Positions 2,696 to 47,480 of a DNA stretch of 64,000 nucleotides are shown here, piece after piece. Source of the stretch: Spirochaetota bacterium. Its GTDB lineage: Bacteria > Spirochaetota > UBA4802 > JAGODF01. The stretch's first letter is position 1. Each line of letters begins with the position of its first letter. Location: NCBI GenBank assembly GCA_036846345.1, contig DAIUCD010000001.1, positions 330,363-394,362 on the forward strand, read 5' to 3'. The translations under genes were made by a program, and so were the position numbers. The notes under the pieces were generated by a model. It had not been told where the DNA came from. It ran no database searches and saw only the letters and a program-made list of their open reading frames with translations.

Positions 2696-4954
2696 ATGAA
2701 AAAGACAATCATGATCATCGGCGGGGGGCTGCTACAGGTGCCGGTCATTCAGACGGCTCAGAGAATGGGATTACAAGTCATCGTGACGGATTACAATCCC
2801 AACGCTATAGGAATGAGATTTGCGGATATCCCTCTTGTCATGAGCACCCGGGATTTCGAGGGATCAGTACGGGTGGCTAAGGCACAGAATGAATTAACCC
2901 CCATCAGCGGGGTTCTGACGGTGGGAACCGACGCTTCTATGACGGTAGCGGCCGTTGCCAACGCTCTCAATCTGCCAGGTATCAAGTTTGAAGACGCCGA
3001 GGCAGCCACCAACAAGATTAAAATGAGGATGCGTTTCAAGGAACACGGCGTTCCCTGTCCCAACTTTCTGCCGGTGTGGTCTCTGGCAGATGCCAAGAAG
3101 GCCTGCATGATCCTGAACTTCCCCGTGGTTATCAAACCCTCGGACAATATGGGGGCCCGGGGGGTTATGCGGATAGATGACAAGACTCAATTGGGAGATG
3201 CCTTCAAATTTGCAAAAAGCGCTTCTCCCAGTGGGGAACTGATCATTGAAGAATACATGGAGGGCCCGGAGCTTTCCATTGATGCGGTTATCTATAACGG
3301 AGAAATCACCTTTACCGGGATTGCGGATCGAATCATCGAATACCCGCCTTATTTCGTGGAGACGGGACATACCATGCCCTCACAGATGAATGCCGAGCAG
3401 CAGGAATGGGCCTGCGAAGTGATGCGACGTGGGATCAGGGCCCTGGGCATCAATATTGGATACGCCAAGGGAGATATCAAGATTACCAAAAAGGGAGCGA
3501 TGATCGGAGAGCTGGCGGCTCGTCTCTCCGGCGGATTTATGTCCGCCTACACCTATCCCCTTTCCACAGGGGTGGATCTGATGCGTGCAGCCATTGAGAT
3601 ATCCCTGGGCCAGGAGCCCGCAAACCTGGAGCCGGTCATGAACCGTGTGGCCATAGAGCGGGCCATCATCACAAGGCCGGGAATTGTACGGAAGATTTGC
3701 GGTCTGGAGGATGCTCTTAAAATTCCGGGGATCATGGAGATATTTCTCAACGTGAAACCGGGGGACCGGATCGTGCCGCCTCGTTCCAATGTGGAAAAGG
3801 CGGGTCATATCATAGCCGTGGGTGATTCCTTGGAGATGGCGGAAAGGGTCGTTGAGATCTGTCGGAAAACCCTGAAGATAGAGATTTATGAAGAATCGGA
3901 AATCACTCTGGAGGCCATCAACCTGGCCGCCCGGGAGAAACTGAAAAGGATCTGCTATGTCTGCAAAAACTGTGACGGCAAGGATTGTCCCACCGGCGTG
4001 CCCGGCATGGGAGGTATAGGGACCGGGGCTTCCTTCAGGAGAAACGTAGAAGCTCTGAGGAATTACAAGATCAACACCCGGCTCATTCATGACGTGACTC
4101 TGCCAGACACAGCCACGAATTTTTTCGGTGTGGATCTGAACCTCCCGGTGATGGCGGCACCCATAACCGGAGCCGTGACCAATATGGGCGGTGCGGTGGA
4201 CGAGCTGGATTACAACAGGGCCGTTGTGGAGGGATGCCTGGATTCAGGCACTCTTGCCTTTGTGGGAGACGGGGCCACACCGGACAAGTACAAGATCGGT
4301 ATACAGGCGCTGGATGAGTTCCGGGGCATGGGTGTTCCCATCTTCAAGCCGCGGAGCGAGAATCAGGAAATCATCAAACGCATCCGGGCTGCGGAGAAGG
4401 CTCATGTCGTCGGTGTGGGAATGGACATCGATGCGGTGGTCTTCAAGACCATGGCCATGAAGAATCAGGCGGTTGGTCCCAAGAGTCTGGAAGACCTCAA
4501 ATATCTCATTTCCTCTACCGGGATACCCTTCATACTCAAAGGGGTGATGAATCCCAGGGATGCGGTCATGGCTGTGGAGGCCGGGGCGCACGGGATCGTC
4601 ATCTCCAACCACGGGGGGCGTGTCCTGGATGAGATGGCGGGTACCATGGACGTGCTGGAGGACATCATTCGGGAGGTCAAGGGGCATATACGGATCCTGG
4701 TGGACGGAGGTTTCCGCACCGGAGTGGATATTCTGAAGGCATTGGCCATGGGGGCGGATTTTGTGCTGATCGGAAGGCCCATCGCCATCGCTGCTGTTGG
4801 CATGGGGTCAAGGGGCGTCACTCATTACATAAACAATCTGAAGAAGGACCTACAGCAGGCCATGATCTTGACCGGCTGCAAGGATATTTCGGAAATATCG
4901 TCGGAAATAGTCAAGAAGATGAACAACGGAAAGACTCTCTATACGGTTTCATAA
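2696..4954 (+). CDS. Fusion: ATP-grasp carboxylate-amine ligase + FMN-dependent alpha-hydroxy-acid oxidising domain
   Basis: N-half: IIGGGLLQ, VVIKPSDNMGARGV, IIEEYMEGPELS, IGELAARLSG. C-half: CYVCKNCDGKDC, VMAAPITG, PFILKGVM, VISNHGGRVLD, VDGGFRTGVDILKALAMGADFVLIGRP. Confidence 0.85.
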   Translation: MKKTIMIIGGGLLQVPVIQTAQRMGLQVIVTDYNPNAIGMRFADIPLVMSTRDFEGSVRVAKAQNELTPISGVLTVGTDASMTVAAVANALNLPGIKFEDAEAATNKIKMRMRFKEHGVPCPNFLPVWSLADAKKACMILNFPVVIKPSDNMGARGVMRIDDKTQLGDAFKFAKSASPSGELIIEEYMEGPELSIDAVIYNGEITFTGIADRIIEYPPYFVETGHTMPSQMNAEQQEWACEVMRRGIRALGINIGYAKGDIKITKKGAMIGELAARLSGGFMSAYTYPLSTGVDLMRAAIEISLGQEPANLEPVMNRVAIERAIITRPGIVRKICGLEDALKIPGIMEIFLNVKPGDRIVPPRSNVEKAGHIIAVGDSLEMAERVVEICRKTLKIEIYEESEITLEAINLAAREKLKRICYVCKNCDGKDCPTGVPGMGGIGTGASFRRNVEALRNYKINTRLIHDVTLPDTATNFFGVDLNLPVMAAPITGAVTNMGGAVDELDYNRAVVEGCLDSGTLAFVGDGATPDKYKIGIQALDEFRGMGVPIFKPRSENQEIIKRIRAAEKAHVVGVGMDIDAVVFKTMAMKNQAVGPKSLEDLKYLISSTGIPFILKGVMNPRDAVMAVEAGAHGIVISNHGGRVLDEMAGTMDVLEDIIREVKGHIRILVDGGFRTGVDILKALAMGADFVLIGRPIAIAAVGMGSRGVTHYINNLKKDLQQAMILTGCKDISEISSEIVKKMNNGKTLYTVS

Positions 4955-5042: not shown

Positions 5043-5071
5043 GCGATGGGCATATGCCCATCGCCTTTTTC
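5043..5071 (+). terminator. Intrinsic terminator between convergent genes
   Basis: Perfect 22-bp palindrome GCGATGGGCATATGCCCATCGC (5043-5064) followed by CTTTTTCTT. Confidence 0.7.
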
Positions 5072-6436
5072 TTATGGGGTCACCCTTTCATAAACCCGGA
5101 TGGTTTTATCCAGAAAGTCCGAGGAAACCATGTACTTCCCGTCAGGGGAAACATCCAGACCTGTCGGCTGATTGCCCCCCTCCCAGTATTCCACAACCTC
5201 ATTCCGGGAGGTATCGATCACGTAGATCCGTCCCATGTCGAAACCCTTGATCAGGTAGCTTTTGGGATTGTTTTTTCCGCGGCAGGAAACATAGAGATAT
5301 TTCTCATCCGGGGATAGGGCGATGGTGTTGGGATGGCTGTAAACGGGAATGGTTTTTCCCTGGCGGTCGTTGTCCAGGTGATAGGTATCCACGGAGGAAC
5401 GGCCCATATCGGATACATAAATAATCCCCCCTTTCGCAGATGATACGATATGGCGCTTGGCCCCGGGTCGGCCCATGGTTTTTACAATCTTGTTGGAACC
5501 GAGAGAGATTTTCAGCACATGACCCTGCCGGTCTCCGTCGTTTTTTATGCCGTACTGTGCAACATAGAGATATTTCCCGTCAGGAGAAACCAGCATGCCA
5601 CGAGGGATCCCGTGAATGCTGATCCTGGAAAGCTCCTTCCGTGTTTTGATGTCGATAACCGAGAGGTTTTTACCCACCCAGTTGGAAAAGTAGACCCGGT
5701 CCCGGTGGTTATCGTAACAGAGTACCTTGCCCCAGCTCCCCGAGACCTTGATGGTGGTCAGATACTTCAGCGTGTCGAGGGCGAAGATGTGGATGGAGTT
5801 GGTATACATCTGACTGATCCAGAGTTCATTGTGCTTGCGGATGACCAGGGATTCTACAAATCCCTTTTTCTTTGCCCACTTGGCGGGAGGGCTGATCAGA
5901 CCTCTTTCCCCGGTTACTACGTTGATGATGTCCGCACCGTTGCCGGAGAGCAGGGGCATGACCACACGCTGATTATCGATAAAGGTGACGCTCTTGGGCT
6001 GTTCCCCAGTATAATAATAGTTCACATAGCGGTGGGTACTGCCGGCCTTATCCAGCATGAAGAGGGGTATCTCCTTTTTATAACGACTCTCTTCCCTGTC
6101 CAGAGATATGTTCCTTTTTAGTGTCTGAAAACCGGGATTTTCAACGATAAACTCAAAGCCGGATCCGTCCCTGTAGCGGGGAACCTGCAGGATCATGGTA
6201 GCCAGGGTCTTGTCCTTGGAGAGGATTTTGGGTGTCTGCTTTATCCCGTTGATGAGCAGTGTGGAGTTTTTATAGGGCTGCAGATTGATCTTCCATTTGA
6301 TGGTGGAAACAGGGGTTTGTTTTTCCTTGACAACGGGATTTACCTTGCCGTTACCCTCCCGGCAAAGGGATATAAGGGGAAGCAGAAAGAGTATCACCAG
6401 GATCAGGGATCTCTTCTTCGATGGTATTGTAATCAT
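5072..6436 (-). CDS. YncE/YVTN-type beta-propeller protein, probable lipoprotein
   Basis: Lipobox-like LISLC. Repeats such as PRGMLVSPDGKYLYVA, PNTIALSPDEKYLYVS, PTGLDVSPDGKYMV. Confidence 0.8.
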   Translation of the reverse strand: MITIPSKKRSLILVILFLLPLISLCREGNGKVNPVVKEKQTPVSTIKWKINLQPYKNSTLLINGIKQTPKILSKDKTLATMILQVPRYRDGSGFEFIVENPGFQTLKRNISLDREESRYKKEIPLFMLDKAGSTHRYVNYYYTGEQPKSVTFIDNQRVVMPLLSGNGADIINVVTGERGLISPPAKWAKKKGFVESLVIRKHNELWISQMYTNSIHIFALDTLKYLTTIKVSGSWGKVLCYDNHRDRVYFSNWVGKNLSVIDIKTRKELSRISIHGIPRGMLVSPDGKYLYVAQYGIKNDGDRQGHVLKISLGSNKIVKTMGRPGAKRHIVSSAKGGIIYVSDMGRSSVDTYHLDNDRQGKTIPVYSHPNTIALSPDEKYLYVSCRGKNNPKSYLIKGFDMGRIYVIDTSRNEVVEYWEGGNQPTGLDVSPDGKYMVSSDFLDKTIRVYERVTP

Positions 6437-12037: not shown

Positions 12038-12754
12038 ATGTTAAACAGGGCAATCAAATTCCTCATCGTTTTTTTATGTCTGGAACTGTGCGAAATCGCC
12101 ATCGGTCAGTGTTTTTATTCTGTATCCCATTCGGGACTCTGGGCTGCGGGTCGTTATAAACGGGTAAAAAGCCACAATCAGGGAGTTAAGAAGGGAGAAT
12201 ACCGGATGCACCGCGTGAGGCGAGGCGAAAACCTGCATAAAATTTCGGATAAATATCATGTTTCGATAGACGAACTCTGTCGTATCAACCGAATCAAGCG
12301 GGATGAAGGCCTTGATTATGGTATGCTGTTGAAAATACCCAACAACGGGACGTTAAAACACGGGGAGGAGGCCTTCAAAAGCGGCAGTAGGCCCTACTTC
12401 CAGTGGCCCCTTCGAAAGGTGATCCATATTAAGCGGGATGGAAGAGATGGGGTAAAATCCATAGGCATCATTATAACGGGAAGGGGAGGATCGGCAGTTT
12501 ATTCCTCTGCCTCCGGCAGAGTCAAGAAGATCGGATGGATGCGGGGTTTCGGCAAGTATGTCATACTGAAACATGAGGGACGATATATAACGGTATACGC
12601 CAATATGGACCGTGTATTTGTGAAAGAGGGAGATAGTGTGGAGAAGGGGCATATGATCGGACGTATTGACGAACAGGACAATCGCCTTCATTTCCAGATC
12701 AACTGTGCGGGGAAGACACGGGATCCTCTCAATCTGCTGCCTAAAAAGAGTTAA
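12038..12754 (+). CDS. LysM + degenerate M23 (NlpD-like) protein
   Basis: LysM HRVRRGENLHKISDKYHVSIDELCRIN; M23 fold SSASGRV..GW.RGFGKYVILKH..YITVYAN..V.EGD.V.KG..IG..LHFQI. Confidence 0.9.
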   Translation: MLNRAIKFLIVFLCLELCEIAIGQCFYSVSHSGLWAAGRYKRVKSHNQGVKKGEYRMHRVRRGENLHKISDKYHVSIDELCRINRIKRDEGLDYGMLLKIPNNGTLKHGEEAFKSGSRPYFQWPLRKVIHIKRDGRDGVKSIGIIITGRGGSAVYSSASGRVKKIGWMRGFGKYVILKHEGRYITVYANMDRVFVKEGDSVEKGHMIGRIDEQDNRLHFQINCAGKTRDPLNLLPKKS

Positions 12755-15700
12755 TCGGGGTTCATGGATGGGTTGTAAAACTGATAGGTGTTGCGTCCTT
12801 TGTCCTTGGCTCTGTAAAGGGCTATATCGGCATATTTAAGCAGCGTTTCCATGTCCCGGGAGTCTGTGGGGAAAATGGCAATCCCCATGCTGGGGCTGAT
12901 GCTCAGCTGATGCGTGGAAATGGATACCGGCAGCGAGAAGGAGTGGAAGATACGCTGTATGATCTTGTAGACATCATTGAAGCTCTTGATATCGGGCAGA
13001 ATGAAGGTAAACTCGTCGCCACCAATGCGGGCCACGGTATCGATGACACGAATGTTTCCTGCAAGCTTGCGCGAGACGACCTTTAAGAGCATATCACCGA
13101 TATCATGGCCGTACGTGTCATTTACTTCCTTGAAATAATCCAGATCCAGAATCATGACCGCCACCATCTGATAATGGCGGCTGGCCTGCGCCAGAGTCTG
13201 GGTCAGGCGGTCATAAAAGAGAAGTCTGTTGGGCAGATCGGTGAGAATATCGTGATGGGCCATGTGTTTAAGGGATTGCTCCAGCCTTTTACGCTCGGTT
13301 ATATCGTGAAATATTGTAGCGAAATAGCCCTCCTGTGGGCTGTAATTGGAAACGGTATACCATCTCTCCAGCGCCTGGGAGTACTGATCCGTAAATCCTT
13401 CCATCTCCTCATTGAGCGAACTTTTTCGATAGATATCCATCAGATTCAGAAGAATATCCTGGCGGGGCCATTCCCCTGACTCCTGATCGTCCGCGGAGAT
13501 GTGGATTCCATCATCCCGGGAAAGATGCACCCCGGCATAACGGGTGTAAATCTCCGAAAACCTGCGGTTGATGAGATCCTCTTTTGTTATTCCCGTTATT
13601 TTTTCAAATGCATTATTGGCCTCGAGGCAGATGAAATCAACGGGTCCTTTCTCCTCATCGTAGAGAATTTTATGATAGGCGAAGCCGTCCTCCATGTTCA
13701 GGAAGAGATAATGGTACTTAAGCTCGGTCATCTGCAGCGCGTCCTCGGCCTTTTTTCTCTCCATCAGCTCCTGCTGTACCGATGTATAGAGGCGGGCATT
13801 ATCCATAGCGATGGAGGCGAACTGAGCGAACTGGAGCAGGAGGGCTATTTCCTCCTCATCAAAGGTTTTCCCTGACTCTGTATGAGCCAGACCAATGACG
13901 CCCATCACCCCGGATTCAGACTTCAGGGGAATGGTTATCAGGGATGCTATAGTATCCAGGTCCGCGCCGGGTATGCGGTTTTCCAGAAGCGAGTAGTTGT
14001 CGGTCGTCATCATGTGCCCCGCCTGCCATACCTTTCCGGCCAGACCCTGATGGGGATAGATCCTGTCTCCGATCCTGGCCTCGAAGATGCCCTTCCCGGC
14101 CATGGTGGCCAGATAGGATTGGCTTTCGTCAACGATACAAATGTAACCGTTGGGCGTATCCAGCAGGGTGGTGGCATAGACGACGATGGAGTTAAGCAGA
14201 TCGGAAAGCTGAAGGCGGTTCATGAGTGCAAGGTTGGTTTCATGGAGGGCCGCGAGATATTTACTGTGCTTGCGCAGCTTCTCGTCCATGCGTATTCTCT
14301 CCTGGATCTCCTGCTGCAGACGTTCATTGGCCTGTGTCAGCTCCTGTGTACGTTCCCTGACCCGGCTTTCCAGTTCATCGTGCGCCTTCTTGAGCTGGTC
14401 TTCCACGACCTTGCGGTCTGTAATATCCCGGGCATTGGCGATGATACCCTTCACTGAAGGGTTGTCCAGCAGGTTCTGAAGGATCACCTGGAACATCCTG
14501 TAGGAGCCGTCCGCATGGCGGATACGCAGCTGGCGGGATCTTCCCGCATGGGGATGGTTCACGATGTCTGTGAATACGCTTCGGGCATTATCCAGATCCT
14601 GCTCGTTTATATACCGGCAGGGTTCTTGATGAAGAAGGGATTCTGCGCCATAGCCCAGGACGCTGGTGATCGAGGGGCTGATAAAGGTCAGAGCACCCTT
14701 GGCATCGATAATGGTGATGATGTCCGTTGAGTTGGCAATGAGAGCCTTGTAATGCTCCTCCACATCCCTCAATTCCTTTTCAGACCTTTCCCGGAGTTCG
14801 ATTTCCTTGAGCAGCTGTTTCATTTGACGAATGTCCCGGCCCAGAAAGACTATGCCGATAATTTCGTCGTTTCTATCTTTGATGGCGGACATGGACATGG
14901 AGACAGGGATGAGATTCCCTGTAGTGGCCGCCTGATAATGCAGTTCGCACTGCACCTCCTGTTGAGGGTCCTGTTTGATCATGGCAATAGTCTCTAAGAT
15001 GGATTCCTTTTCCATGAAAAGGCTCTCAACGGGCCTGCCGGTGATGTCCTTCTCGTCGAAACCCAGCATGGTGGCAAGCAGAGAGTTGATCAGCATGATC
15101 CGGTTCTGGAGATCAGTCAGGATCAGGGTGTCCCGTATCTGATTGATGATCTTATCAATGGCGATGGCCGGGGTCAGAGACATGAGTCTGTAACGCGTGA
15201 TGGCAACCCATATGCCCGAGATCCATATAATCATGAGTATGGGCTCCACGAGAACAATGGAGGTGATATTCAGCAGGGGAAAGACCATATTGACCAGCAT
15301 GATGAGCAGGATGGTGGCGATACCTGAAATTACAATAAGCCGGGACTGTTTCTGCTCCATAACTCTTCTTGAGGCACGTCCCCATGCGTAAGTGAAAAAG
15401 AAACCGAGAACTGCATAGCCGAGATAATAGGTGTTGAAAAGCCAGTACCAGGCGGAATCCATTGCGACGACTTCATACCAGCCGTAGTCTGTCGGCTGAA
15501 AGTCTCTGACGAAGAGTATTCCTGTTATGGCCTGGAAGGTAAAAATTATTGCAGGGAGGTAAATCAGGGGGAGTGCCCACCGATGCTTTAAAAAGCCCTT
15601 CCGTCCCGTCAGGGCAAGAAAAAAATGAAGGAGCGAGGCCGGAAGGAAACACCATCCGGGTGAAGAAATCTTGTACCATAACCAGCAAAGCGACTTGTCC

Positions 15701-15867
15701 GGCGAGGAGTAGAAAAAAGCATAGGCTAGTGACCAGTGGCTGAGGAGGAGGGTTGTTAAAAAGAATATTCTGTTCAACCCGCGCCGTGTGTCGAGTCTCA
15801 GAACATATATCCCGACGGCCAGATAGATCAGGACTGTACTGGCAGATAGTAGAGAAAATATGCTCAT
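12751..15867 (-). CDS. Membrane diguanylate cyclase: N-terminal 7TM sensor, PAS, PAS, GAF, PAS, GGDEF
   Basis: About 7 hydrophobic helices; PAS signatures; HDILTDLPNR, LDLDYFKEVNDTYGHDIGD; RVID I-site five residues before GGDEF; ADIALYRAK..GRN. Confidence 0.93.
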   Translation of the reverse strand: MSIFSLLSASTVLIYLAVGIYVLRLDTRRGLNRIFFLTTLLLSHWSLAYAFFYSSPDKSLCWLWYKISSPGWCFLPASLLHFFLALTGRKGFLKHRWALPLIYLPAIIFTFQAITGILFVRDFQPTDYGWYEVVAMDSAWYWLFNTYYLGYAVLGFFFTYAWGRASRRVMEQKQSRLIVISGIATILLIMLVNMVFPLLNITSIVLVEPILMIIWISGIWVAITRYRLMSLTPAIAIDKIINQIRDTLILTDLQNRIMLINSLLATMLGFDEKDITGRPVESLFMEKESILETIAMIKQDPQQEVQCELHYQAATTGNLIPVSMSMSAIKDRNDEIIGIVFLGRDIRQMKQLLKEIELRERSEKELRDVEEHYKALIANSTDIITIIDAKGALTFISPSITSVLGYGAESLLHQEPCRYINEQDLDNARSVFTDIVNHPHAGRSRQLRIRHADGSYRMFQVILQNLLDNPSVKGIIANARDITDRKVVEDQLKKAHDELESRVRERTQELTQANERLQQEIQERIRMDEKLRKHSKYLAALHETNLALMNRLQLSDLLNSIVVYATTLLDTPNGYICIVDESQSYLATMAGKGIFEARIGDRIYPHQGLAGKVWQAGHMMTTDNYSLLENRIPGADLDTIASLITIPLKSESGVMGVIGLAHTESGKTFDEEEIALLLQFAQFASIAMDNARLYTSVQQELMERKKAEDALQMTELKYHYLFLNMEDGFAYHKILYDEEKGPVDFICLEANNAFEKITGITKEDLINRRFSEIYTRYAGVHLSRDDGIHISADDQESGEWPRQDILLNLMDIYRKSSLNEEMEGFTDQYSQALERWYTVSNYSPQEGYFATIFHDITERKRLEQSLKHMAHHDILTDLPNRLLFYDRLTQTLAQASRHYQMVAVMILDLDYFKEVNDTYGHDIGDMLLKVVSRKLAGNIRVIDTVARIGGDEFTFILPDIKSFNDVYKIIQRIFHSFSLPVSISTHQLSISPSMGIAIFPTDSRDMETLLKYADIALYRAKDKGRNTYQFYNPSMNPD

Positions 15868-19156: not shown

Positions 19157-19747
19157 ATGAAATCATTGAGGCCGGTGGTTCTGATGCTTTTATTGGCGGG
19201 TGCCTGTTCCGCTATAGGGTGTGCAACGAGCGGTATCCCCAGCTGCCTGGAAATATCTCCTCCCGAAATCAGCATGACCGGGGAGAAAACGGTCATCGAG
19301 CGTCAGATCGTGGGGGATTACCGGGAGCTTGAGAAGGATGCCTGGATCATCTCCTCTGTGAAAACCAATTCCGGAAAGGGCAAGGGGATCTATGAGAAGG
19401 ACAAGGTGCTCTTCAAGGCCATGAAGATACGGGATGATCTCCGTGACCGGATACGGGTTTATAAAAAAGAGGGAGTTGTCGGTGAGGGGAATGACGGCTA
19501 CCTCAAATATATTGGTACGCCCAGGTACAGCAAGGATAAAAAGCTGAAGGGGAAACTGGATGCCGTTGTCAAGCAGGAGAATGAGGCCCGTAAAATGATC
19601 TTTGTCAGAACCCTGACAAAATCGACTGGTAAGCCATCGGAAAAGGATATAGCCGCCTTTGGTGTGAAGTTCGCTGAGGAGCAGAGGGCTGTTGCCGAAA
19701 AAAATGACTGGATTCAGGATACTTCAGGTAAATGGGAAAGAAAATAA
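19157..19747 (+). CDS. DUF1318 (YdbL-like) lipoprotein
   Basis: Lipobox-like AIGC; KKEGVVGEGNDGYL, V..EN..R..I, F..EQR......WIQ..SGKW are DUF1318-type signatures. ATG at 19157. Confidence 0.8.
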   Translation: MKSLRPVVLMLLLAGACSAIGCATSGIPSCLEISPPEISMTGEKTVIERQIVGDYRELEKDAWIISSVKTNSGKGKGIYEKDKVLFKAMKIRDDLRDRIRVYKKEGVVGEGNDGYLKYIGTPRYSKDKKLKGKLDAVVKQENEARKMIFVRTLTKSTGKPSEKDIAAFGVKFAEEQRAVAEKNDWIQDTSGKWERK

Positions 19748-22700
19748 TGAAACCGAGAACCGTAAGAAGAGCCCTCTTTGCGATTTTACTGATATCTTCC
19801 GTTTTCCTTCCCTCCTGTGAGGACAAGAGCGCCAAAGAGGTGGAGTTCAATTACAGCAAGATATTGCGGAAGGAATACAAGTACAATGTAGGAAAGGTAG
19901 TGCCGGTTACGATCGAGCAGTCTACGGAAATCGACGGGACTGTAACGGCGGATGCCGAATATCTCTATTTTTCTTCGGATCGGGACAACGGCAACTTCGA
20001 CATCTACCTGCGTTCCCTTAAGGATATTACAACGGTTAGAATAACCAGACATCCTTCCAAAGACACGGCTCCGGCCATTTCGCCAAACGGTAAATATCTT
20101 GCCTTTGTTTCGCAAAGGGAAGATCCCGAGGGGGATATCTATGTTGTAAGGGTCAAACCCAAGAAGCTTATAGCGAGTGCTGCGAAATCCATTGCCGATC
20201 TCCCCTCCCTGGACGACAAAGCACGGAATCTGACGCAGTTCCAGGATCCTGCGACCAAGACCGTCCGCATCATCAAGGACAGCTCTCCCTGCTGGTCTCC
20301 TGACGGCGACTGGATCGCCTTTTCCTCGACCCGGGGAAATGGTTTGGAGAACATATGGGTGATGGACCGAAAGGGAAACGATAAAATCCAGATCACGAAA
20401 AAAGGGGGGATGTATCCCCGTTTCTCCGAGGATGGGAAATCCATCATCTACATATCCTACACGGATAAGGGCAGCAATGGGGATGTATATATTGTCGACT
20501 TTAAAACACGGAGGGAGCGTAGAATCACCAATACGAGCGCTATCGAACTGTATCCGTCCTTTATGAAAAACAGCCACGAAATCGTCTATACCCTTATCGA
20601 CCGGGACACCAATGCGGACGGTAAGATCGATCTCAAGGACAACTCCATCCTGTACTACAGAAATCTTAAAACAGGTTTGGAATATCCCCTGACGGTGTAC
20701 TCGAGCTCCTCCTTCGGAGCCAAATGGATCCCCGCCTTTAAGTCTGTGGACAAGGAGTATGATGGAACTCTTCTTTATTCAGATATGATGGGACAGAACA
20801 TCAATATCAATATCATCCCGGAGTACGGCATCATCCCGAAAAAGCGAAATGCCCTCCAGCAGTATATGCTGGCAGAAAAATATATCAAGGAACAGGATGA
20901 CATAGAGAAGTATGTTATGTGCCTGGAACGGGTATACAGTTTCTTCGGTACCCGGAAGGATACTCAGTCCATTATTTTTGTATCCAAGGCACTTATGGAG
21001 GCAGCCAGGCTGTACCATGAATACGGTTATAAAAAGGATGCGGAACGCCTTCATAGGCTTGTTAAATCCCTTTCGCCGGAAAAGAATGACTTTAGGAATA
21101 TCGCAGGCCGTTACCTAGATAAAATCCTTTCCGGAAGATCCGGCAGTGCGGTTCTTCTGGGGGCCATCGGTGATCTTGAGAAGGATACCAAGAGGAAAGA
21201 ATTTCTCCCCTACATGATGGAACAGCTTGGGGATGATTATCTTAACAGCAAAAAAACCGCTGAGGCTCTGAAATGGTACAGAACCGTTGCTGAGAGGCAC
21301 ACGAAATTCGACCGGATCAGGTATGTAGAATACAAAATAGGCGCTCTCTCCTTCCGCAGTGTTCGGGATGAGATTCCGCAGGCCTATCTGAACGTTCTTG
21401 GTTCTGAGTTTGTTTATCTTAAGAACGATACGCTTAAAAACATCATCGATGTCTTCAGCAAAGAGAAGGATCTCAAACTTCAGATAAGGGTTGCTGATAA
21501 ACACCTTAAAAGATTCAAGGACAACAAGTATCTTCCCGGTATTCTCGAATATATTCTCGGAAACGCCTACTATCGCAGCATTGATGTCAAAAATTCCCTG
21601 GAGCATCTTCAGAAATGCCTTAAGCTTGTGAATAAATCCGATCTCACTTTCTACAAGGCCAACAGGCTATTGGGTAAGATCGCAGAAAAGATGAACAGGC
21701 CTGAGGAGATGGAGAGATATTATTACGAGCTCAGTAGTAATTATCAGCTTTACTGGCAGCAGCCCGATTTTCCCCGGGTTCTTATCAAACTTATTTCCCA
21801 CTACGAGAAGCTGGGGGAAAATCTGCGGGGAGCCGGCAGGATTGGAGATGCCGTCAGCCTCTATCAGAAATATGTGGGTATTATCACTTACGTCCATCTG
21901 TTGAAAAAGTATGAGGATATCTATAATGAATACGGTTCCCGGGCACATGTTCTCTATGTCGACACCGCTGCGGAGGGTCGCGGGAACGCCTATAACCGCC
22001 TGAAAAAACTTGAGGATAAGTATATCAAGAGGCTTCCCATTGCCAGGCTGGATTTCGACAAGGCCCATCTCTACGGTCTCGCTTATATCTACTCGAAGAT
22101 GGGGCTGACCTATGACCGGGGGCAGTCCCTGGTGGGAAATCTGAGCGGAGGTCTCGTCGCAGGAGATCTGGAGAACATGCTGAAATGCTTTTATCAGTCC
22201 GTAGAGCAGATCGATTGGGCCCTTTTTATGGACGATACCTATGTGGATCCTTATCTGCTTAAGGGATGGGTCTTCCAGTATGTAGATCTCAAGCGTAAAG
22301 AGGACCAACAAGAAACGGGAGGGAAAAAGGAAGGCGTGATCGGGGATGTGTTCCCAAAATACCTCTGGGAGAGAAACATCGGGATTTATGAAAAAGCTCT
22401 GGGCATCAACGATGAAAAAAAGTATCCGGAAGTGGAGGGCAATCTTCATCTGAACATAGGTAACACCTATTATCTTCTTTCCAATTATCCCAGGGCATTG
22501 CGTCATTATGAGGATGTGCTCAAGTACAAGCTCCATTTCAATACGGAGATCGAGGAGGCGATATATCGCTTCCATCTGGGTTTCTGCTACTGGCAGAACG
22601 ACGAGATAGAAAAGGCCCGGGATGAGATGAACAGGACATTGGGAATCTATCAGCGTCTATCCGCCAAAGAGGGGGCTTCCAAGTATAAGCTGCAGATCTA

Positions 22701-25170
22701 CTATCTGTACCGATACTTCGCTCTTTTCAGTCGTATGGAGGAGAACTATAAAGACGCCATCGCCTGGTTTCAGAAGATTCTTCAATATGCTGACAGCAAC
22801 AAGATCAAGGTGGACCGGGCCCGCTATGTTCAGGAGATCGGATACTGCTATTATGAGATGGGAGATGCTGATAGAGCCCTGGAGTATCTGGACAAGGCGG
22901 AAAAGCTTCTTAAGGACTATAAGGACGACAAGAAGACCTATAAAATGGGTTTTAAAATTTTCGGAATCGGACCTATCCGGTTTTACGATCTGGGTTCCGA
23001 CACGGCGGTTATTGGGGATAATAAGATCTATACCGAGCTGGATACTTTCAATAAAAAGCTGCTCAACCTTGCTCTCCAGGAGGTAATCAATTTCGGCAGG
23101 GGTAACTACCAAAGGGCCATCGAGTTCCTTAAAAAGAAGCTGGAACTCCTGAAAGACCGCAATGACAAGGTAAACCAGGAGGCCCGGATTAGAACCCTGA
23201 ACAATATCGGCTACTGTTATTATATGATGCATGATTATCTTCAGGCAAGGGATTATTTTACACAGGCCTGGGATTATGCGGCAAGTCCGGACGTCAATGA
23301 TCTGGGCGGCATATTCAGCACCATCATGAATATCTCCGATCTCTATGCCTTTCTCATGGATTACAAGCCTATGCTTTTAGCGGAGCCGGAGAAGAGCGTG
23401 AATACCGTCATTCAGAGGATGGTGGCCTATAAGGACAGTTATGAGAAGAATCGTTTTGTTCAGGAAAGGATCAAGCTGGAAGCCGATGCAAAGGCGAAAA
23501 AGCGCACCATAGAGGAAAAGGAGCTGAATGCCCTCAGAAAACGGATTAAAGTAAACGCGCAGAGCATCTATTACAGCATAGACATCGCTGTCGGGATATT
23601 GAAGTGTTATCACGCCGAGCAGATTTATACCCAAAAATCCGGAGGTAAAGGGCTCGATCCCACAGAGTACCATGCCTATAACAAGCAGCTCTTTGATCTG
23701 TATTCCGATGCCAGGAAACGTTTTGAAAACGCCCTGGTAGAGGCGGACAAAAAGATATCCAAGCGTCTGATGGTGAAGCTCCTTTTAAATCTGGGGACAA
23801 CTCAGAAACGGATGGGCATGATTGACGACGCCTATACGAGCTACCTGAACGCGGAAACCATCGGAAAAAACATGGCCTACGAGGACCTGAACTGGGTGGT
23901 CTATCAAAAGCTGGGCAACATTCTCAGGGAGCATGGTCAGGGACTCGAGGGATCCGGATATACGTCCCTGGCAGAGGGGTATTATCTTAAGGCCGTCCGT
24001 CTTGTAAAGACCGAGCCCTATCTTTATATGGATAAGTTTCATCAGGTTTCCGCTCTTATGGATGAGTATGCGGATTTTCTTATACACAAGGGGGCTGTGA
24101 AACGGGCGCTGGAGCAGTTGGAGTTGAAAAGCGCAATCGGCCGAGTTCAGCTGGTCATGAAGGATTTCCCTGATTTTGCAAGAGCCGAGGACAGGAAGAA
24201 TTACAAGCAGTATCGGGATATAACCCGGAGTATCAGTATTTTGAAGAGAATTCTCTCCTCGAAGCTGGAAAAGGGGGAACCCTTGAACTCGGATAAGATT
24301 AAAAAGGTTCAGAAAGATCTGGCAGGATTGCAAAACCAGTTGAAGGGTGTTGTTTCCTCATCCGGTAAGAGCAACCCCTTGTTGAGGAGTTATATCGAGG
24401 TATCGGAAAAACCTCTCAGGGGGCCCAGGGGAAGTGTTGTATATCGTTTCATGGACCAGGGGAATGATGTCTACTGCTGGGAGATCAAGGGGAGTGACAT
24501 CACACTTAACAGGGTTCCCCTGAAAGAAAACCAAAAGGGCGGGGAACGTGATGAGGCCATCAGCAGTTACCTAAAGGGAAGAGCCGGCAGGCTTGGATTG
24601 AAGATATTTATTATTCTGGATGATATGACTGTCCGGATATTCGGCAATGCTCAGAAGATGAAAGGATTTCCTCCTTTCACCTTCGCCTCCTCACTGGACA
24701 GGACCGCTTATTATGCAAGGGTTACCAGTGGCGGCCTTGATAAAATTCTCTTCAATGGAAAGGGGCTAAAAAAAGAAGCGCAATCTTCGGTCTCCCTAAA
24801 GTCCCTCTCAGTGGATGAGCTGGATATCAACAAGGCTGACCCGGCTCGCTATGCAGGATTGATAGACAGCATGCCGGATGACAGGGGTATCAATAGCGGG
24901 TGGCTCTTTAAAAAGAAGACAGCTGCAAAGATCGTCATTAAGAAGAGGGAAAAGATGGATACGGAACAGATCTGTCTCATGGCTGAGGCCTCTCTCTATA
25001 CCGGGGTGCAAACGCTTATGCTGGTGGACAATACAGAGCCTGGGAACATCATAGCCTTGCTGGAGCGTTATAGAACCCGGTCCCCTGCCGGGGCAAAGGT
25101 GCCGCCGAGAGATCGTTTTCAGGGGTACATTGCCATTGGGGTCGGGGAAGGTGGAAACCCGGAGAAGTGA
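19747..25170 (+). CDS. About 1800-aa lipoprotein: TolB/PD40 beta-propeller + TPR array + degenerate CHAT-like C-terminus
   Basis: Lipobox FLPSC; PD40 repeats (PAISPNGKYLAFVS, PCWSPDGDWIAFSS, PRFSEDGKSI); DRDTNADGKIDLKD Ca-loop; many TPRs. TAATG overlap with the upstream gene. Confidence 0.8.
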   Translation: MKPRTVRRALFAILLISSVFLPSCEDKSAKEVEFNYSKILRKEYKYNVGKVVPVTIEQSTEIDGTVTADAEYLYFSSDRDNGNFDIYLRSLKDITTVRITRHPSKDTAPAISPNGKYLAFVSQREDPEGDIYVVRVKPKKLIASAAKSIADLPSLDDKARNLTQFQDPATKTVRIIKDSSPCWSPDGDWIAFSSTRGNGLENIWVMDRKGNDKIQITKKGGMYPRFSEDGKSIIYISYTDKGSNGDVYIVDFKTRRERRITNTSAIELYPSFMKNSHEIVYTLIDRDTNADGKIDLKDNSILYYRNLKTGLEYPLTVYSSSSFGAKWIPAFKSVDKEYDGTLLYSDMMGQNININIIPEYGIIPKKRNALQQYMLAEKYIKEQDDIEKYVMCLERVYSFFGTRKDTQSIIFVSKALMEAARLYHEYGYKKDAERLHRLVKSLSPEKNDFRNIAGRYLDKILSGRSGSAVLLGAIGDLEKDTKRKEFLPYMMEQLGDDYLNSKKTAEALKWYRTVAERHTKFDRIRYVEYKIGALSFRSVRDEIPQAYLNVLGSEFVYLKNDTLKNIIDVFSKEKDLKLQIRVADKHLKRFKDNKYLPGILEYILGNAYYRSIDVKNSLEHLQKCLKLVNKSDLTFYKANRLLGKIAEKMNRPEEMERYYYELSSNYQLYWQQPDFPRVLIKLISHYEKLGENLRGAGRIGDAVSLYQKYVGIITYVHLLKKYEDIYNEYGSRAHVLYVDTAAEGRGNAYNRLKKLEDKYIKRLPIARLDFDKAHLYGLAYIYSKMGLTYDRGQSLVGNLSGGLVAGDLENMLKCFYQSVEQIDWALFMDDTYVDPYLLKGWVFQYVDLKRKEDQQETGGKKEGVIGDVFPKYLWERNIGIYEKALGINDEKKYPEVEGNLHLNIGNTYYLLSNYPRALRHYEDVLKYKLHFNTEIEEAIYRFHLGFCYWQNDEIEKARDEMNRTLGIYQRLSAKEGASKYKLQIYYLYRYFALFSRMEENYKDAIAWFQKILQYADSNKIKVDRARYVQEIGYCYYEMGDADRALEYLDKAEKLLKDYKDDKKTYKMGFKIFGIGPIRFYDLGSDTAVIGDNKIYTELDTFNKKLLNLALQEVINFGRGNYQRAIEFLKKKLELLKDRNDKVNQEARIRTLNNIGYCYYMMHDYLQARDYFTQAWDYAASPDVNDLGGIFSTIMNISDLYAFLMDYKPMLLAEPEKSVNTVIQRMVAYKDSYEKNRFVQERIKLEADAKAKKRTIEEKELNALRKRIKVNAQSIYYSIDIAVGILKCYHAEQIYTQKSGGKGLDPTEYHAYNKQLFDLYSDARKRFENALVEADKKISKRLMVKLLLNLGTTQKRMGMIDDAYTSYLNAETIGKNMAYEDLNWVVYQKLGNILREHGQGLEGSGYTSLAEGYYLKAVRLVKTEPYLYMDKFHQVSALMDEYADFLIHKGAVKRALEQLELKSAIGRVQLVMKDFPDFARAEDRKNYKQYRDITRSISILKRILSSKLEKGEPLNSDKIKKVQKDLAGLQNQLKGVVSSSGKSNPLLRSYIEVSEKPLRGPRGSVVYRFMDQGNDVYCWEIKGSDITLNRVPLKENQKGGERDEAISSYLKGRAGRLGLKIFIILDDMTVRIFGNAQKMKGFPPFTFASSLDRTAYYARVTSGGLDKILFNGKGLKKEAQSSVSLKSLSVDELDINKADPARYAGLIDSMPDDRGINSGWLFKKKTAAKIVIKKREKMDTEQICLMAEASLYTGVQTLMLVDNTEPGNIIALLERYRTRSPAGAKVPPRDRFQGYIAIGVGEGGNPEK

Positions 25171-29605: not shown

Positions 29606-30496
29606 ATGGAAATTGGGCCCATCATAGACATTAATAAATGCACACTTTGCCGGAAGTGTGTGGATTTATGCCCAAAGGCAGTTCTGTCTGTCGATGGCTC
29701 CATGCTCAGCATAGGTGAGGGATGTATTCTTTGCACCCATTGTTATGATGTCTGCAAATTTAATGCGATAGGATTTGACGAGAGCCTTCGCCCATTACAG
29801 TTCCACAGTTTTTCTTATAAGGAAAAGGTTATGGGGGCCGACAGTATCTCGTCAAAGGATCTGGTGAATTTTATACGTTCCCGCAGGAGCATAAGAAGAT
29901 TTAAAGACAAATCTCTATCGGATGAGGTGCTGAGAGATCTTGTTGAATTTGCAGTATCGGCGCCATCAGGGAGTAACTGCCAGATATGGGAATTCCTGGT
30001 ATTGAACGGCAGGGACAAGGTGTATGGCCTGGCTCAGGATATTGAAAGATTTTTTGTAAAACTGAACAGGCTGGCGGCTAATCCCTGGATTCGATTTATA
30101 TCTCCTTTATTTGCCGGCAGAACCTTGATCAGGTATTATAAGAATCATTATGAATCGGTCAAGATGGGTTTGGAGGAGGCCCGAAAAGGGCATGATCTAC
30201 TGTTTCATGGGGCCCCTGCGCTCATTGTCATACACAGTTCTACAGAGGGCAGCCTCCCGAGGGATGATGCCCAGTATGCGGCCTACAATATTACGTTACT
30301 GGCGCATAGTCTGGGTTTGGGCAGCTGCTTTATCGGATATGCCTCAGAAACACTCAACCGGGCCAGGGATATACGTATAAAACTCGGCATTCCCGTTAAC
30401 AATCGGGTTCATGCTGTGCTGGTTCTGGGTTATCCGGATGTACAGTTCCATCGTCTTTCCTTACGGAAACAGTATTCGGTTGCCTTCTATCAATAA
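29606..30496 (+). CDS. Nitroreductase with N-terminal 2x[4Fe-4S] ferredoxin domain
   Basis: CTLCRKCVDLCP, CILCTHCYDVC; RSRRSIRRF, APSGSNCQ.WEF, AHSLGLGSCFIG. Confidence 0.92.
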   Translation: MEIGPIIDINKCTLCRKCVDLCPKAVLSVDGSMLSIGEGCILCTHCYDVCKFNAIGFDESLRPLQFHSFSYKEKVMGADSISSKDLVNFIRSRRSIRRFKDKSLSDEVLRDLVEFAVSAPSGSNCQIWEFLVLNGRDKVYGLAQDIERFFVKLNRLAANPWIRFISPLFAGRTLIRYYKNHYESVKMGLEEARKGHDLLFHGAPALIVIHSSTEGSLPRDDAQYAAYNITLLAHSLGLGSCFIGYASETLNRARDIRIKLGIPVNNRVHAVLVLGYPDVQFHRLSLRKQYSVAFYQ

Positions 30497-32895: not shown

Positions 32896-33489
32896 ATGGC
32901 TAAGATCAAGCTGGCTCTTATCAGTGTATCGGACAAAACGGGAGTGATGGAATTCGCCAAAGAACTGGCGGCCCAGGGGGTAAAGATTCTGTCCACCGGT
33001 GGAACGGCAAAGATGCTGCGTGATGCCGGGCTAACCATCAAGGATGTATCGGAACATACTGGATTCCCTGAAATGATGGACGGCAGGGTAAAGACACTCC
33101 ATCCCAAGGTTCATGGAGGCCTTCTTGGTCTGCGCAGCAATCCCGAACATGTCAAAGTCATGAAAGAGCATAATATAGAGGAGATTGACATGGTTCTGGT
33201 CAATCTCTACCCCTTCAAGAAAACCATATCACAACCGGGCTGTACACTGGAAGACGCCATAGAAAACATAGATATCGGCGGGCCAGCCATGCTTCGTTCT
33301 GCTGCGAAGAATTTTGAGAGCGTTACGGTCATCATTGATCCTGCGGATTACAAGACTGTCATCGACGAGATGAAGAGTCATGGTGGAGTGGTGTCACGGG
33401 AAACCAATTTCAGGCTTGCCGTGAAGGTTTATGAAACCACCTCGGAATATGACAGAATGATTGCTGGTTATTTAAAAGAAAGGTGTTAA
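32896..33489 (+). CDS. purH: IMP cyclohydrolase (stand-alone N-terminal MGS-like domain of PurH)
   Basis: [55 protein letters not shown]; stops after 197 aa with no transformylase domain. Confidence 0.9.
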
Positions 33490-44030: not shown

Positions 44031-44762
44031 ATGGGTGATCCCTGTATGAGAACCAGACTTCGCCTGAATATCCTGCCTCAGCCTGACGATGTTACCTGCG
44101 GGCCTACCTGTCTGCATGCTGTATACCGTTATTATGGGGACAATATATCTCTCGATAAGGTGATATCTGAAGTGCGGGGTGTTGAAGGGGGGGGGACTCT
44201 GGCGGTTTTTCTTGGATGCCATGCCCTCTCCAGGGGATATCGCGCGAAAATTTACACCTACAACCTGCAGGTCTTTGATCCCTCCTGGTTTAGGGATTCC
44301 TCGATCGATATCGTCGAGAGGTTGAAAAGTCAGATGCAGCATAAACGTGTAAAAAAACTTCATGAGGCCTCGGAGGCCTACAGTGAATTTCTTTCACGGG
44401 GAGGCAAAATACAGTTTGAGGACCTCACGCCGGGACTGATCAGGCGTTACCTGAAGAAGTCAGTTCCTGTACTGACAGGACTCAGTGCCACCTACCTTTA
44501 CAGGACGGCCCGTGAGTACGGGGCGGCCTGTGATTATGACGATGTGCGGGGCGATCCTTCGGGGCATTTCGTTGTTCTCTGCGGATATGATCAGACGGAA
44601 AGGGAGGTGCTTGTGGCCGACCCCATGCTGCCCAATCCTGTGTCGAAAAGCCATCAGTATCTCGTCAGCATCAATCGCCTGATCTGCTCAATACTGCTAG
44701 GGATTCTCACCTATGATGCCAACCTGCTGATCATCGAGGAGAACCCGAAGGGGACAAAATAA
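44031..44762 (+). CDS. Papain-like C39-family peptidase
   Basis: QPDDVTCGPTCL (Q-x4-C type), GHFVVLCGYD, VADP: Cys-His-Asp triad. No signal peptide. Confidence 0.85.
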   Translation: MGDPCMRTRLRLNILPQPDDVTCGPTCLHAVYRYYGDNISLDKVISEVRGVEGGGTLAVFLGCHALSRGYRAKIYTYNLQVFDPSWFRDSSIDIVERLKSQMQHKRVKKLHEASEAYSEFLSRGGKIQFEDLTPGLIRRYLKKSVPVLTGLSATYLYRTAREYGAACDYDDVRGDPSGHFVVLCGYDQTEREVLVADPMLPNPVSKSHQYLVSINRLICSILLGILTYDANLLIIEENPKGTK

Positions 44763-44763
44763 A

Positions 44764-46230: not shown

Positions 46231-47480
46231 TGAGAGAACCTGAGAAACCCCTGCACCTCTTTGAGGGGTACGGGGTTGAGCTGGAATACATGATCGTTCA
46301 TGCTGACACCCTCAGGGTGATGCCTGTTGCCGATGAGGTACTTAAAGCTGAGGCTGGAATCATCACTAACGATGTGGAACGGGGGAGCATGGCCTGGTCC
46401 AATGAGCTGGTGCTGCATGTAATGGAGCTGAAGACCAACGGCCCCGCAGAGAATCTAAAATCCCTCCCGGAAAATTTTCTTGGAGAAATCCGATACATCA
46501 ACGGTCTGCTCAAAGCCTTTGACGGCATGCTGCTTCCGGGGGGGATGCATCCCCTGATGGACCCGCTCCAGGAAACACGTCTGTGGCCCCATGCAAATAG
46601 TGAGATCTATGAGAGTTATGACCGAATCTTCGGCTGTCGGGGTCATGGCTGGGCCAACCTGCAAAGTGTCCATCTAAACCTCCCCTTCTGCGGGGATGAG
46701 GAATTCGGAAAACTACATGCCGCCCTCCGAGTTATCCTCCCCATCCTGCCAGGACTGGCGGCCAGCACGCCGCTCATGGAGGGCCGTAAAGCCGGTTTCA
46801 TGGACACGCGGCTGGAGGTCTACCGGCTCAATCAGAAAAAAATCCCGGTGATAACAGGAGAGGTGATCCCTGAGGCGGTCTATACCAGGCGGGATTATGA
46901 GCGCTCGGTTTTAGAACCCATTGCCAGCGGCATTCAACCCTTTGATACTGAGGGAATCCTTGAAGCGGAATGGCTCAATTCTCGTGGGGCCATAGCACGT
47001 TTTGACCGGAACACCATCGAAATCCGGCTGATGGATATTCAGGAATGTCCTCTGGCAGACCTGGCGGTCATTACTGCGGTAGTGGCAGCGGCCAGGGCCC
47101 TGGTTTCAGGGCGATGGGTGGATATCCACTTACTTCAGCAGCAGTCCACTCGGGACTTGAAGCAGATTCTCCTCCAGGTCCTTAAGGAGGGGGAGGAGGC
47201 CCTCATTAAGGATAGGAACTATCTGAGGATGTTCGGACTTGAGGGCGAAAGAAGTCTCTCATGCAGGGACCTATGGGAACATCTGATCGGGGCACTCTTG
47301 ACGGATACAAGCGAAACGGACAGGGGTATCCTCAATGCCCTGAAGACTATTCTCCGTGAGGGCACGCTGGCGCGTAGAATTCTGCGTTCACTGGGGGATT
47401 CCTTCGGGACTCGGGATATCCATAGAGTTTATCGGCAGATGGGAGATTGCCTTAATCGGGGGGAGATGTTCGTTGGCTAA
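46230..47480 (+). CDS. Glutamate-cysteine ligase family 2 (GCS2/YbdK-like) carboxylate-amine ligase
   Basis: YGVELEYMIV, NELVLHVMELKT, GGMHP, SVHLNL, IEIRLMD. TGATG overlap with the upstream gene. Confidence 0.88.
   Translation: MREPEKPLHLFEGYGVELEYMIVHADTLRVMPVADEVLKAEAGIITNDVERGSMAWSNELVLHVMELKTNGPAENLKSLPENFLGEIRYINGLLKAFDGMLLPGGMHPLMDPLQETRLWPHANSEIYESYDRIFGCRGHGWANLQSVHLNLPFCGDEEFGKLHAALRVILPILPGLAASTPLMEGRKAGFMDTRLEVYRLNQKKIPVITGEVIPEAVYTRRDYERSVLEPIASGIQPFDTEGILEAEWLNSRGAIARFDRNTIEIRLMDIQECPLADLAVITAVVAAARALVSGRWVDIHLLQQQSTRDLKQILLQVLKEGEEALIKDRNYLRMFGLEGERSLSCRDLWEHLIGALLTDTSETDRGILNALKTILREGTLARRILRSLGDSFGTRDIHRVYRQMGDCLNRGEMFVG

Follow-up and report, generated by a model that had tools for sequence, protein, structure and literature searches.

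Several flavoenzymes are known in which a TIM barrel carrying flavin mononucleotide (FMN) exchanges electrons with a nearby Cys-ligated iron-sulphur (Fe-S) cluster, and not with O2, among them dihydropyrimidine dehydrogenase, class 1B dihydroorotate dehydrogenase and the FMN domain of glutamate synthase. In glycan chemistry, the nonulosonic-acid glycans bear unusual N-acyl groups, including glyceroyl, hydroxybutyryl and methoxy-trihydroxy-hexanoyl. The flagellins of Treponema denticola, whose glycosylation is said to be indispensable both to motility and to the assembly of filaments, carry a pseudaminic-type nonulosonate with a 2-methoxy-4,5,6-trihydroxy-hexanoyl acyl group, an O-methylated 2-hydroxy acid (PMC13439194). 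For Tannerella Pse5Am7Gra, the literature states that the enzymes attaching the N-glyceroyl group are unknown (PMC5378307), and Leptospira are reported to make nonulosonic acids (PMC3438082). Here we analyse a gene at positions 2696-4954 (+ strand) of a 64,000-nucleotide stretch of the genome of a Spirochaetota bacterium (contig DAIUCD010000001.1, positions 330,363 to 394,362; the whole stretch is hereafter called the window). Its open reading frame (ORF) starts with ATG, runs for 752 residues and joins an ATP-grasp ligase to an FMN-dependent 2-hydroxy-acid dehydrogenase (FMN_dh) barrel that begins with a four-Cys (Cys4) motif. The first-pass annotation had described one uninterrupted ORF with two complete domains, a description borne out by both the ORF reading and Pfam. 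Taken alone, the proposal that this protein is a bifunctional ligase plus 2-hydroxy-acid dehydrogenase is very probably right.

The N-terminal domain (aa 1-400, positions 2696-3895, + strand) is of the L-amino-acid-ligase type according to its Pfam matches, its motifs and its similarity to the structure 3vot. Pfam models ATP-grasp_4 (4e-16), ATP-grasp_3 and LAL_C2 (1e-18, aa 325-397) all score above their gathering scores, and a sequence search of the PDB matched 3vot at 2e-30. The ATP/Mg motifs, comprising K147 in VIKP, the NMGARGV loop, the E185/E186 hinge, D260 and E272-x3-R276-x2-G279-G280, align with those of 3vot and are invariant in 72 full-length orthologues. We then modelled the whole 752-residue protein with AlphaFold2 (AF2) from an 82-sequence alignment, obtaining a mean predicted local distance difference test score (pLDDT) of 93.6 and a predicted TM-score (pTM) of 0.77. 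The model folds as a three-lobed ATP-grasp domain followed by a C-terminal half with eight beta/alpha units. Foldseek aligned the ligase domain with BL00235 (3vot) at an E value of 9e-35 and a target-normalised TM-score of 0.87, with further matches to 4dim, RizA and BacD. On these motifs, the first 400 residues are predicted to be an ATP-grasp enzyme of the L-amino-acid-ligase clade that joins carboxylates to amines and has its catalytic machinery intact. Foldseek also returned long alignments with pyruvate carboxylase, at root-mean-square deviations of 22-24 Å; this likeness was rejected, as it reflects only the co-occurrence of an ATP-grasp domain and a TIM barrel, and the arrangement of the two is not shared.

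The C-terminal half matches Pfam FMN_dh at 2e-68, above the gathering score, and forms a complete TIM barrel domain (aa 405-745). It opens with a helical segment (aa 405-419, positions 3908-3952, + strand; helix at 405-416 in the AF2 model), which is homologous to the first residues of stand-alone proteins of the same subfamily. The FMN-binding (beta/alpha)8 barrel itself (aa 432-745, positions 3989-4930, + strand) was delimited by Pfam, by profile alignment to HAO1 and L-lactate oxidase (LOX), by Foldseek, which gave a target TM-score of ~0.78 against mandelate oxidase, and by the AF2 model. Conserved barrel residues include D577/D579, K615, S637-N-H639-G-G-R642, D670-G-G-x-R674 and G693-R694-P. 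The last two are the FMN phosphate motifs and are invariant both in the fused orthologues and in a 26-sequence alignment of the subfamily, as are Asp525 (GDG), Lys551 (KP) and Asn496 in the latter. The catalytic motif SNHGGR (positions 4604-4621, + strand), which supplies the equivalents of His254 and Arg257, was likewise invariant in our alignments. In glycolate-oxidase numbering, profile alignment to HAO1 and LOX shows that the catalytic equivalents Lys230 (K615), His254 (H639), Arg257 (R642) and Asp157 (D579) are all kept.

The substrate pocket differs. When the subfamily profile was compared with human HAO1, Met438 (in PGMGG) stood at the position of Tyr24 and Pro548 (in GVPIFKPR) at that of Tyr129, loop 4 was ~30 residues shorter, and there was no Arg at the Arg164 position; the alignment to HAO1 over this N-terminal half is of modest confidence, with the Tyr129 position agreed by two independent alignments. 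The curated NCBIfam models for L-lactate oxidase, LldD and MftD gave only 149, 129.5, 119.5 and 108.9 bits, where the cut-offs are 376, 550, 645.5 and 470.85, and the stand-alone relatives likewise fell below the cut-offs of these models. By these motifs, the barrel is predicted to keep FMN binding and the His/Arg/Lys/Asp catalytic set and is without the three classical carboxylate/hydroxyl ligands. The C-terminal 350 residues are thereby classified, by sequence, as a distinct FMN-dependent 2-hydroxy-acid dehydrogenase subfamily within PF01070, outside the characterised member families. The earlier label of alpha-hydroxy-acid oxidase holds as far as membership of the FMN_dh superfamily is concerned; the word oxidase is unproven, given the absence of the three substrate ligands and the failure of the curated models.

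The four Cys lie between the helix and the barrel, in the motif CYVCKNCDGKDC (C420-x2-C423-x2-C426-x-G-x2-C431; positions 3953-3988, + strand), which is followed by PGMGG at aa 436-440 and represents a putative Fe-S or Zn site. The coordinates given for it in the first-pass annotation were exact and correspond to aa 420-431, but its description as a linker arising from the fusion did not survive comparison with the stand-alone homologues, all of which open with this short helix and then CxxCxxCxGxxC-x-G-x-x-PGMGG. None of the four Cys varies, either in the fused orthologues (72/72) or in an alignment combining fused and stand-alone proteins (26/26). Apparent exceptions in a regular-expression screen all proved to carry four Cys, and the motif is present in every homologue that covers the region. 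One fused orthologue of 927 aa (P0123) contains a Ser/Lys/Glu-rich low-complexity spacer of ~180 residues on the ATP-grasp side of the helix and motif, which places the domain boundary ahead of both. The four Cys are thus read from these alignments as an invariant N-terminal signature of a large FMN_dh subfamily and not as a fusion linker.

This stand-alone Cys4-FMN_dh family comprises 5,725 proteins at E <= 1e-20; the stand-alone homologues compared above are 335-345 aa long and share 41-54% identity with the C-terminal domain of the window protein. Its source annotations are lactate oxidase or alpha-hydroxy-acid oxidising protein, and the named members listed are mostly strict anaerobes: Carboxydothermus, Desulfosporosinus, Desulforudis, Ammonifex, Thermodesulfovibrio and Tepidanaerobacter. 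The genomic contexts of the family are inconsistent, the gene of Desulforudis, for example, being isolated. A further stand-alone member (P0242, 407 aa) carries an N-terminal twin-arginine (Tat) signal, SRREFLASAAVVGAGAVA, which implies export of a folded, cofactor-loaded periplasmic form, as in exported redox proteins.

Because most of the named stand-alone homologues listed are strict anaerobes, a dehydrogenase or reductase that passes electrons via a metal cluster is more likely than an oxidase using O2. In the HAO1 alignment the four Cys lie 7-18 residues before the Tyr24-equivalent position, the last of them 7 residues before it, and a metal cluster held there could sit close to the flavin. 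The AF2 model shows the motif region as coil with pLDDT values of 85, 56 and 78 in successive ten-residue blocks, and the low-scoring coil is as might be expected for a cofactor-dependent loop. Judged from the motif and its distribution, an electron-relaying Fe-S cluster is the more attractive assignment, because the family is concentrated among anaerobes and because the motif immediately precedes the segment that replaces the active-site Tyr24 stretch. Alternatively, the four Cys could form a structural zinc site that steadies the N-terminal loop over the active site of a conventional flavoenzyme linked to O2 or a quinone: a stretch of 12 residues holding four Cys would also fit a compact Zn site, the motif is kept in aerobic Leptospira, its spacing differs from the ferredoxin CxxCxxCxxxCP pattern, and our literature search found no paper on this Cys spacing. 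Set against zinc are the strict anaerobes that make up most of the named stand-alone members listed, which are unable to use O2 as acceptor, the existence of the Tat-signal-bearing member, and the placement of the motif directly before the residues that replace the Tyr24 segment. On this metal sub-question, structural zinc is a serious contender, albeit one to which we give clearly less than even weight.

We then examined whether the fusion is conserved. All of the best 120 database matches (120/120) are fused proteins of 736-771 aa with 72-81% identity, mostly from Spirochaetota metagenome-assembled genomes (MAGs), and are named only as alpha-hydroxy-acid oxidizing protein or ATP-grasp domain-containing protein. 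Scanning a single genome for each species gave 80 loci, so that the fused gene occurs in no fewer than 80 species-level genomes, almost all of them Spirochaetota and some of them complete chromosomes. Cultured carriers include Leptospira ainlahdjerensis and L. ainazelensis, whose proteins share 51% identity with that of the window. Among library clusters built at 50% identity, the fused form (720-800 aa) reaches down to ~37% identity, the distant members being named as Spirochaetaceae, Spirochaetia and Exilispira, plus one Hydrogenedentota MAG, and a partial fused protein was also found in a Nitrospinota MAG. The matches, the 80 loci and the fused clusters down to 37% identity together show that the fusion is real, conserved and vertically inherited, mainly within Spirochaetota. 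The suggestion of a spirochaete-lineage fusion therefore holds for the bulk of the distribution and not for the Hydrogenedentota and Nitrospinota MAG proteins.

These data also bear on whether the architecture could be an artefact of assembly or annotation, or contain one dead domain. Only a single locus of the 80 (L070, CAYLTM010000124.1) has the gene as two same-strand ORFs, 65 nt apart, which probably represents a frameshift or pseudogene, and many database entries end at contig ends. On the other side, the same architecture recurs in independent assemblies of 80 species-level genomes, including complete chromosomes and cultured isolates, the catalytic motifs of both domains are all invariant in the 72 orthologues, and the full-length AF2 model is of high confidence. 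We regard an artefact or a dead domain as having a negligible chance of being correct, and an assembly artefact or gene mis-call in particular is ruled out by the presence of the fusion in 80 genomes that include isolates. Two outcomes that the first-pass annotation had named as fatal to its idea, namely homologues that are always two separate genes and inactivity of one domain, were thus not found, the first on genome counts and the second by sequence. It had also held that no enzyme with this architecture is characterised, and our searches agree: no NCBIfam model passes its cut-off for the 752-aa protein, no PDB entry shows the fused ATP-grasp and FMN_dh architecture, and a literature search on the fused architecture, on Fe-S alpha-hydroxy-acid enzymes and on ATP-grasp enzymes in nonulosonate pathways found no characterised member, nor any paper that deals with the fusion or with the Cys4-FMN_dh subfamily. 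The fused architecture is already in public databases, unnamed, and its component superfamilies are well known.

To place the ligase domain, we turned to its stand-alone relatives, which are 404-419 aa long and share 50-63% identity with the N-terminal domain of the window protein. In canonical pseudaminic-acid operons (pseB/C/H/G/I/F pathway), the N-acetyltransferase PseH occupies the slot that such a ligase holds in the clusters described here. Two unrelated layouts place a relative of 50-55% identity directly after a CTP_transf_3 (PseF-like) gene and a PseG-like gene; the first was seen once (L085), and the second recurs in three related contigs (L086, L087/L088 and L092), where, in addition, the gene for a NeuB/PseI-type synthase immediately follows that of the ligase. 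The PseG-like genes match TIGR03590 at 1e-27 to 1e-33, below its cut-off, and no acetyltransferase gene was present in the clusters of either layout. A monophyletic group of longer ligases (P0151, P0152, P0153, P0155 and P0160; 510-560 aa, 39-49% identity; loci L093 9001-10656 and L094/L095) bears at its C terminus ~150 additional, unannotated residues in which DWHG and FWxAxLRGGxQGG motifs are conserved. One spirochaete contig has a ligase of this group (46% identity) in a cluster whose gene order is spiro-SPASM (TIGR04321), an unknown gene, CTP_transf_3, a PseG-like/methyltransferase fusion, the ATP-grasp ligase, an amidase and FlaA. By analogy, the ligase and methyltransferase of this cluster could account for an acyl group of the T. 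denticola type. Across these nonulosonate clusters, the PseH-slot ligases are 46-55% identical to the window ligase. A rough neighbour-joining tree of ligase domains interleaves fused and stand-alone forms and puts the window protein closer to the PseH-slot ligases than to the distant fused forms. The earlier statement that this ATP-grasp type occurs in surface-glycan loci is therefore borne out, in that its stand-alone relatives sit in pseudaminic-acid-type clusters.

Taken together, this analysis suggests a mechanism, which we advance tentatively as a whole and hold to be somewhat short of probable. The flavin domain would convert a small L-2-hydroxy acid to the matching 2-oxo acid or the reverse, with lactate/pyruvate, glycerate/hydroxypyruvate, or a 3-deoxy-aldonate and its 2-keto form, as candidate pairs. 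Electrons would pass between FMN and a metal cluster, probably Fe-S, bound by the four Cys, and not to O2. The ATP-grasp domain would activate the carboxylate as an acyl phosphate and join it to an amine, giving an N-(2-hydroxyacyl) or N-(2-oxoacyl) product, and the covalent fusion would couple the supply or tailoring of the acyl group to its attachment. The amine is the least certain step; the most likely candidate would be a glycan precursor (surface or flagellar) of the amino-sugar or nonulosonic-acid type, because the closest stand-alone ligases hold the PseH slot and because one cluster lies beside flaA in a spirochaete. This acceptor assignment comes from the relatives, by analogy, and not from the context of the window gene itself.

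That context was analysed by clustering ORFs over the 80 loci plus the window. The upstream neighbour of the fused gene is usually divergent and the downstream one convergent, and the recurrent neighbours are lineage-specific housekeeping genes encoding GlpX-like, GAF-SpoIIE, HI0933-like flavoprotein, LexA and DnaJ-domain proteins; in Leptospira, mnmA lies upstream and a 359-aa ORF downstream. With very few exceptions the fused gene is monocistronic. Across the 80 loci, no transporter, precursor, tailoring, electron-transfer partner or lactate permease gene is conserved beside the fused gene, and its own context gives no direct functional clue.

Several observations weigh against the mechanism proposed above. 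No nonulosonate or glycan genes adjoin the fused gene in the 80 loci, in Leptospira, in a Spirochaetaceae MAG or in Exilispira, and neither the window gene nor any fused orthologue examined belongs to a cluster of the pseF-pseG-X-pseI type. Among the ligases, a verified stand-alone orthologue of 59% identity (P0435) is without nonulosonate or glycan context, and a single lineage accounts for three of the PseH-slot contexts, leaving only ~3 independent contexts. The retention of the four Cys by aerobic Leptospira fits structural Zn as well as Fe-S. Finally, the stand-alone flavin gene of Carboxydothermus hydrogenoformans (CP000141.1, L081 8001-12331) lies in a catabolic-looking, sigma-54-regulated operon, in which a sigma-54 activator and the Cys4-FMN_dh gene are followed by genes for a DHDPS-family aldolase, a CitMHS transporter and an FAH-family hydrolase. 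Anaerobic catabolism of a hydroxy acid or deoxy-sugar acid is a possible role for this operon, so that the metabolite handled by the flavin domain may be a common one with no connection to glycans.

In one rival, the enzyme is a glycan-independent small-molecule or pseudo-dipeptide synthetase. Its ligase would behave as a genuine L-amino-acid ligase and join an amino acid, or a 2-oxo or 2-hydroxy acid, to another amino acid, with oxidation or reduction at the alpha position as the task of its flavin domain, yielding for example an N-pyruvoyl or N-lactoyl amino acid that serves as an osmolyte or signal. The closest solved structures are indeed those of dipeptide-forming ligases (BL00235, RizA and BacD), the fused gene stood apart from glycan genes at all loci examined, and P0435 shows the same separation in a stand-alone form. 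Yet the window ligase shares only 17-25% identity with characterised L-amino-acid ligases versus 46-55% with the PseH-slot ligases, and a synthetase of this kind finds no conserved transporter, precursor or tailoring genes beside it. We consider such a synthetase rather unlikely.

A different rival, for which the Carboxydothermus operon speaks, assigns the flavin domain to energy or carbon metabolism, as an anaerobic dehydrogenase acting on L-lactate or another 2-hydroxy acid; the ATP-grasp domain would then be accessory or unrelated (regulation, or activation of the product acid) and no channelled ligation would occur. Across phyla, identity in the flavin domain is 49-54% and the loop-4 sequence is conserved, which suggests a common small substrate, and the family annotation as lactate oxidase or alpha-hydroxy-acid oxidising protein points the same way. 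In contrast, the invariance of the ATP-grasp catalytic motifs and the retention of the fusion down to 37% identity argue for functional coupling, and neither an electron-transfer partner nor a lactate permease is conserved nearby. We find a purely metabolic dehydrogenase improbable; if the protein were an ordinary lactate dehydrogenase with an appended ligase, its value would be one of modest annotation only.

The coupling of 2-hydroxy-acid chemistry to amine ligation, as put forward in the first-pass annotation, is plausible. A more ambitious form of it, which we think unlikely as it stands, would make the fused enzyme the missing acylating step of a spirochaete nonulosonic-acid glycan, with the ligase replacing PseH, and the Cys4-FMN_dh proteins a group of unrecognised oxygen-independent Fe-S 2-hydroxy-acid dehydrogenases. 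The Fe-S/FMN domain would then either reduce a 2-oxo acid to an L-2-hydroxy acid and pass it to the ligase, or oxidise the acyl group after attachment, to yield pseudaminic-type sugars with an N-(2-hydroxyacyl) or N-(2-oxoacyl) group, as on Treponema flagellins. The PseH-slot ATP-grasp family and the spirochaete fusion provide a concrete, testable candidate for the unexplained N-acyl chemistry on sialic-acid-like sugars. The Cys4-FMN_dh subfamily is of interest as large, concentrated in anaerobes and annotated as oxidase-like, yet without the three canonical substrate ligands; its Fe-S nature, if true, would give a textbook oxidase family a branch that works without oxygen.

At the level of the gene, a GAGG ribosome-binding site (positions 2685-2688, + strand) was read directly from the sequence 7 nt 5' of the ATG. 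Further upstream lies a sigma-70-like promoter match, TTGACA-18 nt-AATAAT (2582-2611, + strand), which agrees with 11 of 12 consensus positions. An intrinsic-terminator-like hairpin, GCGATGGGC-ATAT-GCCCATCGC (5043-5064), of 9 pairs (7 GC) followed by the T-run CTTTTTCTTA (whole element 5043-5074, + strand), is located between convergent genes; both promoter and terminator are consensus matches only. Genes on the opposite strand flank 2696-4954 on both sides, a divergent one upstream and one at 5072-6436 (- strand) downstream. These neighbours, with the promoter-like and terminator-like matches, make a monocistronic reading reasonable, as the first-pass annotation had proposed.

Annotation of the whole 64-kb window revealed no nonulosonate, flagellar or glycan genes and an otherwise ordinary chromosome. 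A second, unrelated ATP-grasp protein is encoded at 44031-47480 (+ strand), where three consecutive genes for a C39-like peptidase (243 aa), a 488-aa RimK-type ATP-grasp protein that starts with an RLAN domain and a 417-aa member of the GCS2 glutamate-cysteine-ligase family form what looks like an amidoligase-type peptide-modification operon. At 29606-30496 (+ strand) lies a gene for a nitroreductase-family protein of 296 aa with an N-terminal 4Fe-4S ferredoxin-type domain. A 197-aa ORF at 32896-33489 (+ strand), with an MGS-like domain and only the first ~60 residues of an AICARFT/IMPCHase domain, represents a PurH-like gene that is either truncated or codes for IMP cyclohydrolase only. The window also encodes a 1,812-aa protein with a PD40 beta-propeller and TPR repeats (19732-25170, + strand) and a 1,038-aa 7TM-PAS-GAF-GGDEF diguanylate cyclase (12751-15867, - strand).

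Among described systems, the ligase half most resembles the L-amino acid ligases BL00235 (3vot), RizA (4wd3) and BacD/YwfE (3vmm), with which it shares the three-lobed fold with LAL_C2, the ATP/Mg motifs and, presumably, attack of an amine on an acyl-phosphate intermediate. It differs from them in its low identity by Foldseek (17-25% only), in being fused to a flavin barrel, and in having its nearest relatives in nonulosonate clusters and not in dipeptide-antibiotic clusters. The stand-alone ligases hold the same slot as PseH, which N-acylates UDP-4-amino-4,6-dideoxy-beta-L-AltNAc, and would likewise N-acylate an amine. PseH, however, is an acetyl-CoA-dependent GNAT enzyme and not an ATP-grasp protein, and the window gene lies outside such a cluster, so that the likeness is an analogy of gene position. 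The flavin half shares its TIM barrel, the FMN phosphate motifs and the equivalents of Lys230, His254, Arg257 and Asp157 with the FMN 2-hydroxy-acid enzymes (glycolate oxidase, HAO1, L-lactate oxidase, Hmo, flavocytochrome b2, LldD and MftD). Unlike them, it has Met438 for Tyr24, Pro548 for Tyr129, no Arg164 and a loop 4 shortened by ~30 residues, and its barrel is preceded by the N-terminal Cys4 motif. Stand-alone relatives from anaerobes, such as Carboxydothermus P0299 and Desulforudis P0385 (both named alpha-hydroxy-acid oxidizing protein), are 49-54% identical over the C-terminal domain, including the helix, the four Cys and loop 4; unlike the window protein they are unfused, ~340 aa long and found in varied genomic contexts, and are themselves uncharacterised. 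The Fe-S flavoenzymes with which we began embody the same concept, an FMN barrel in electron exchange with a Cys-ligated cluster, but belong to another barrel family and have another Cys spacing, and the cluster of the window protein is predicted only.

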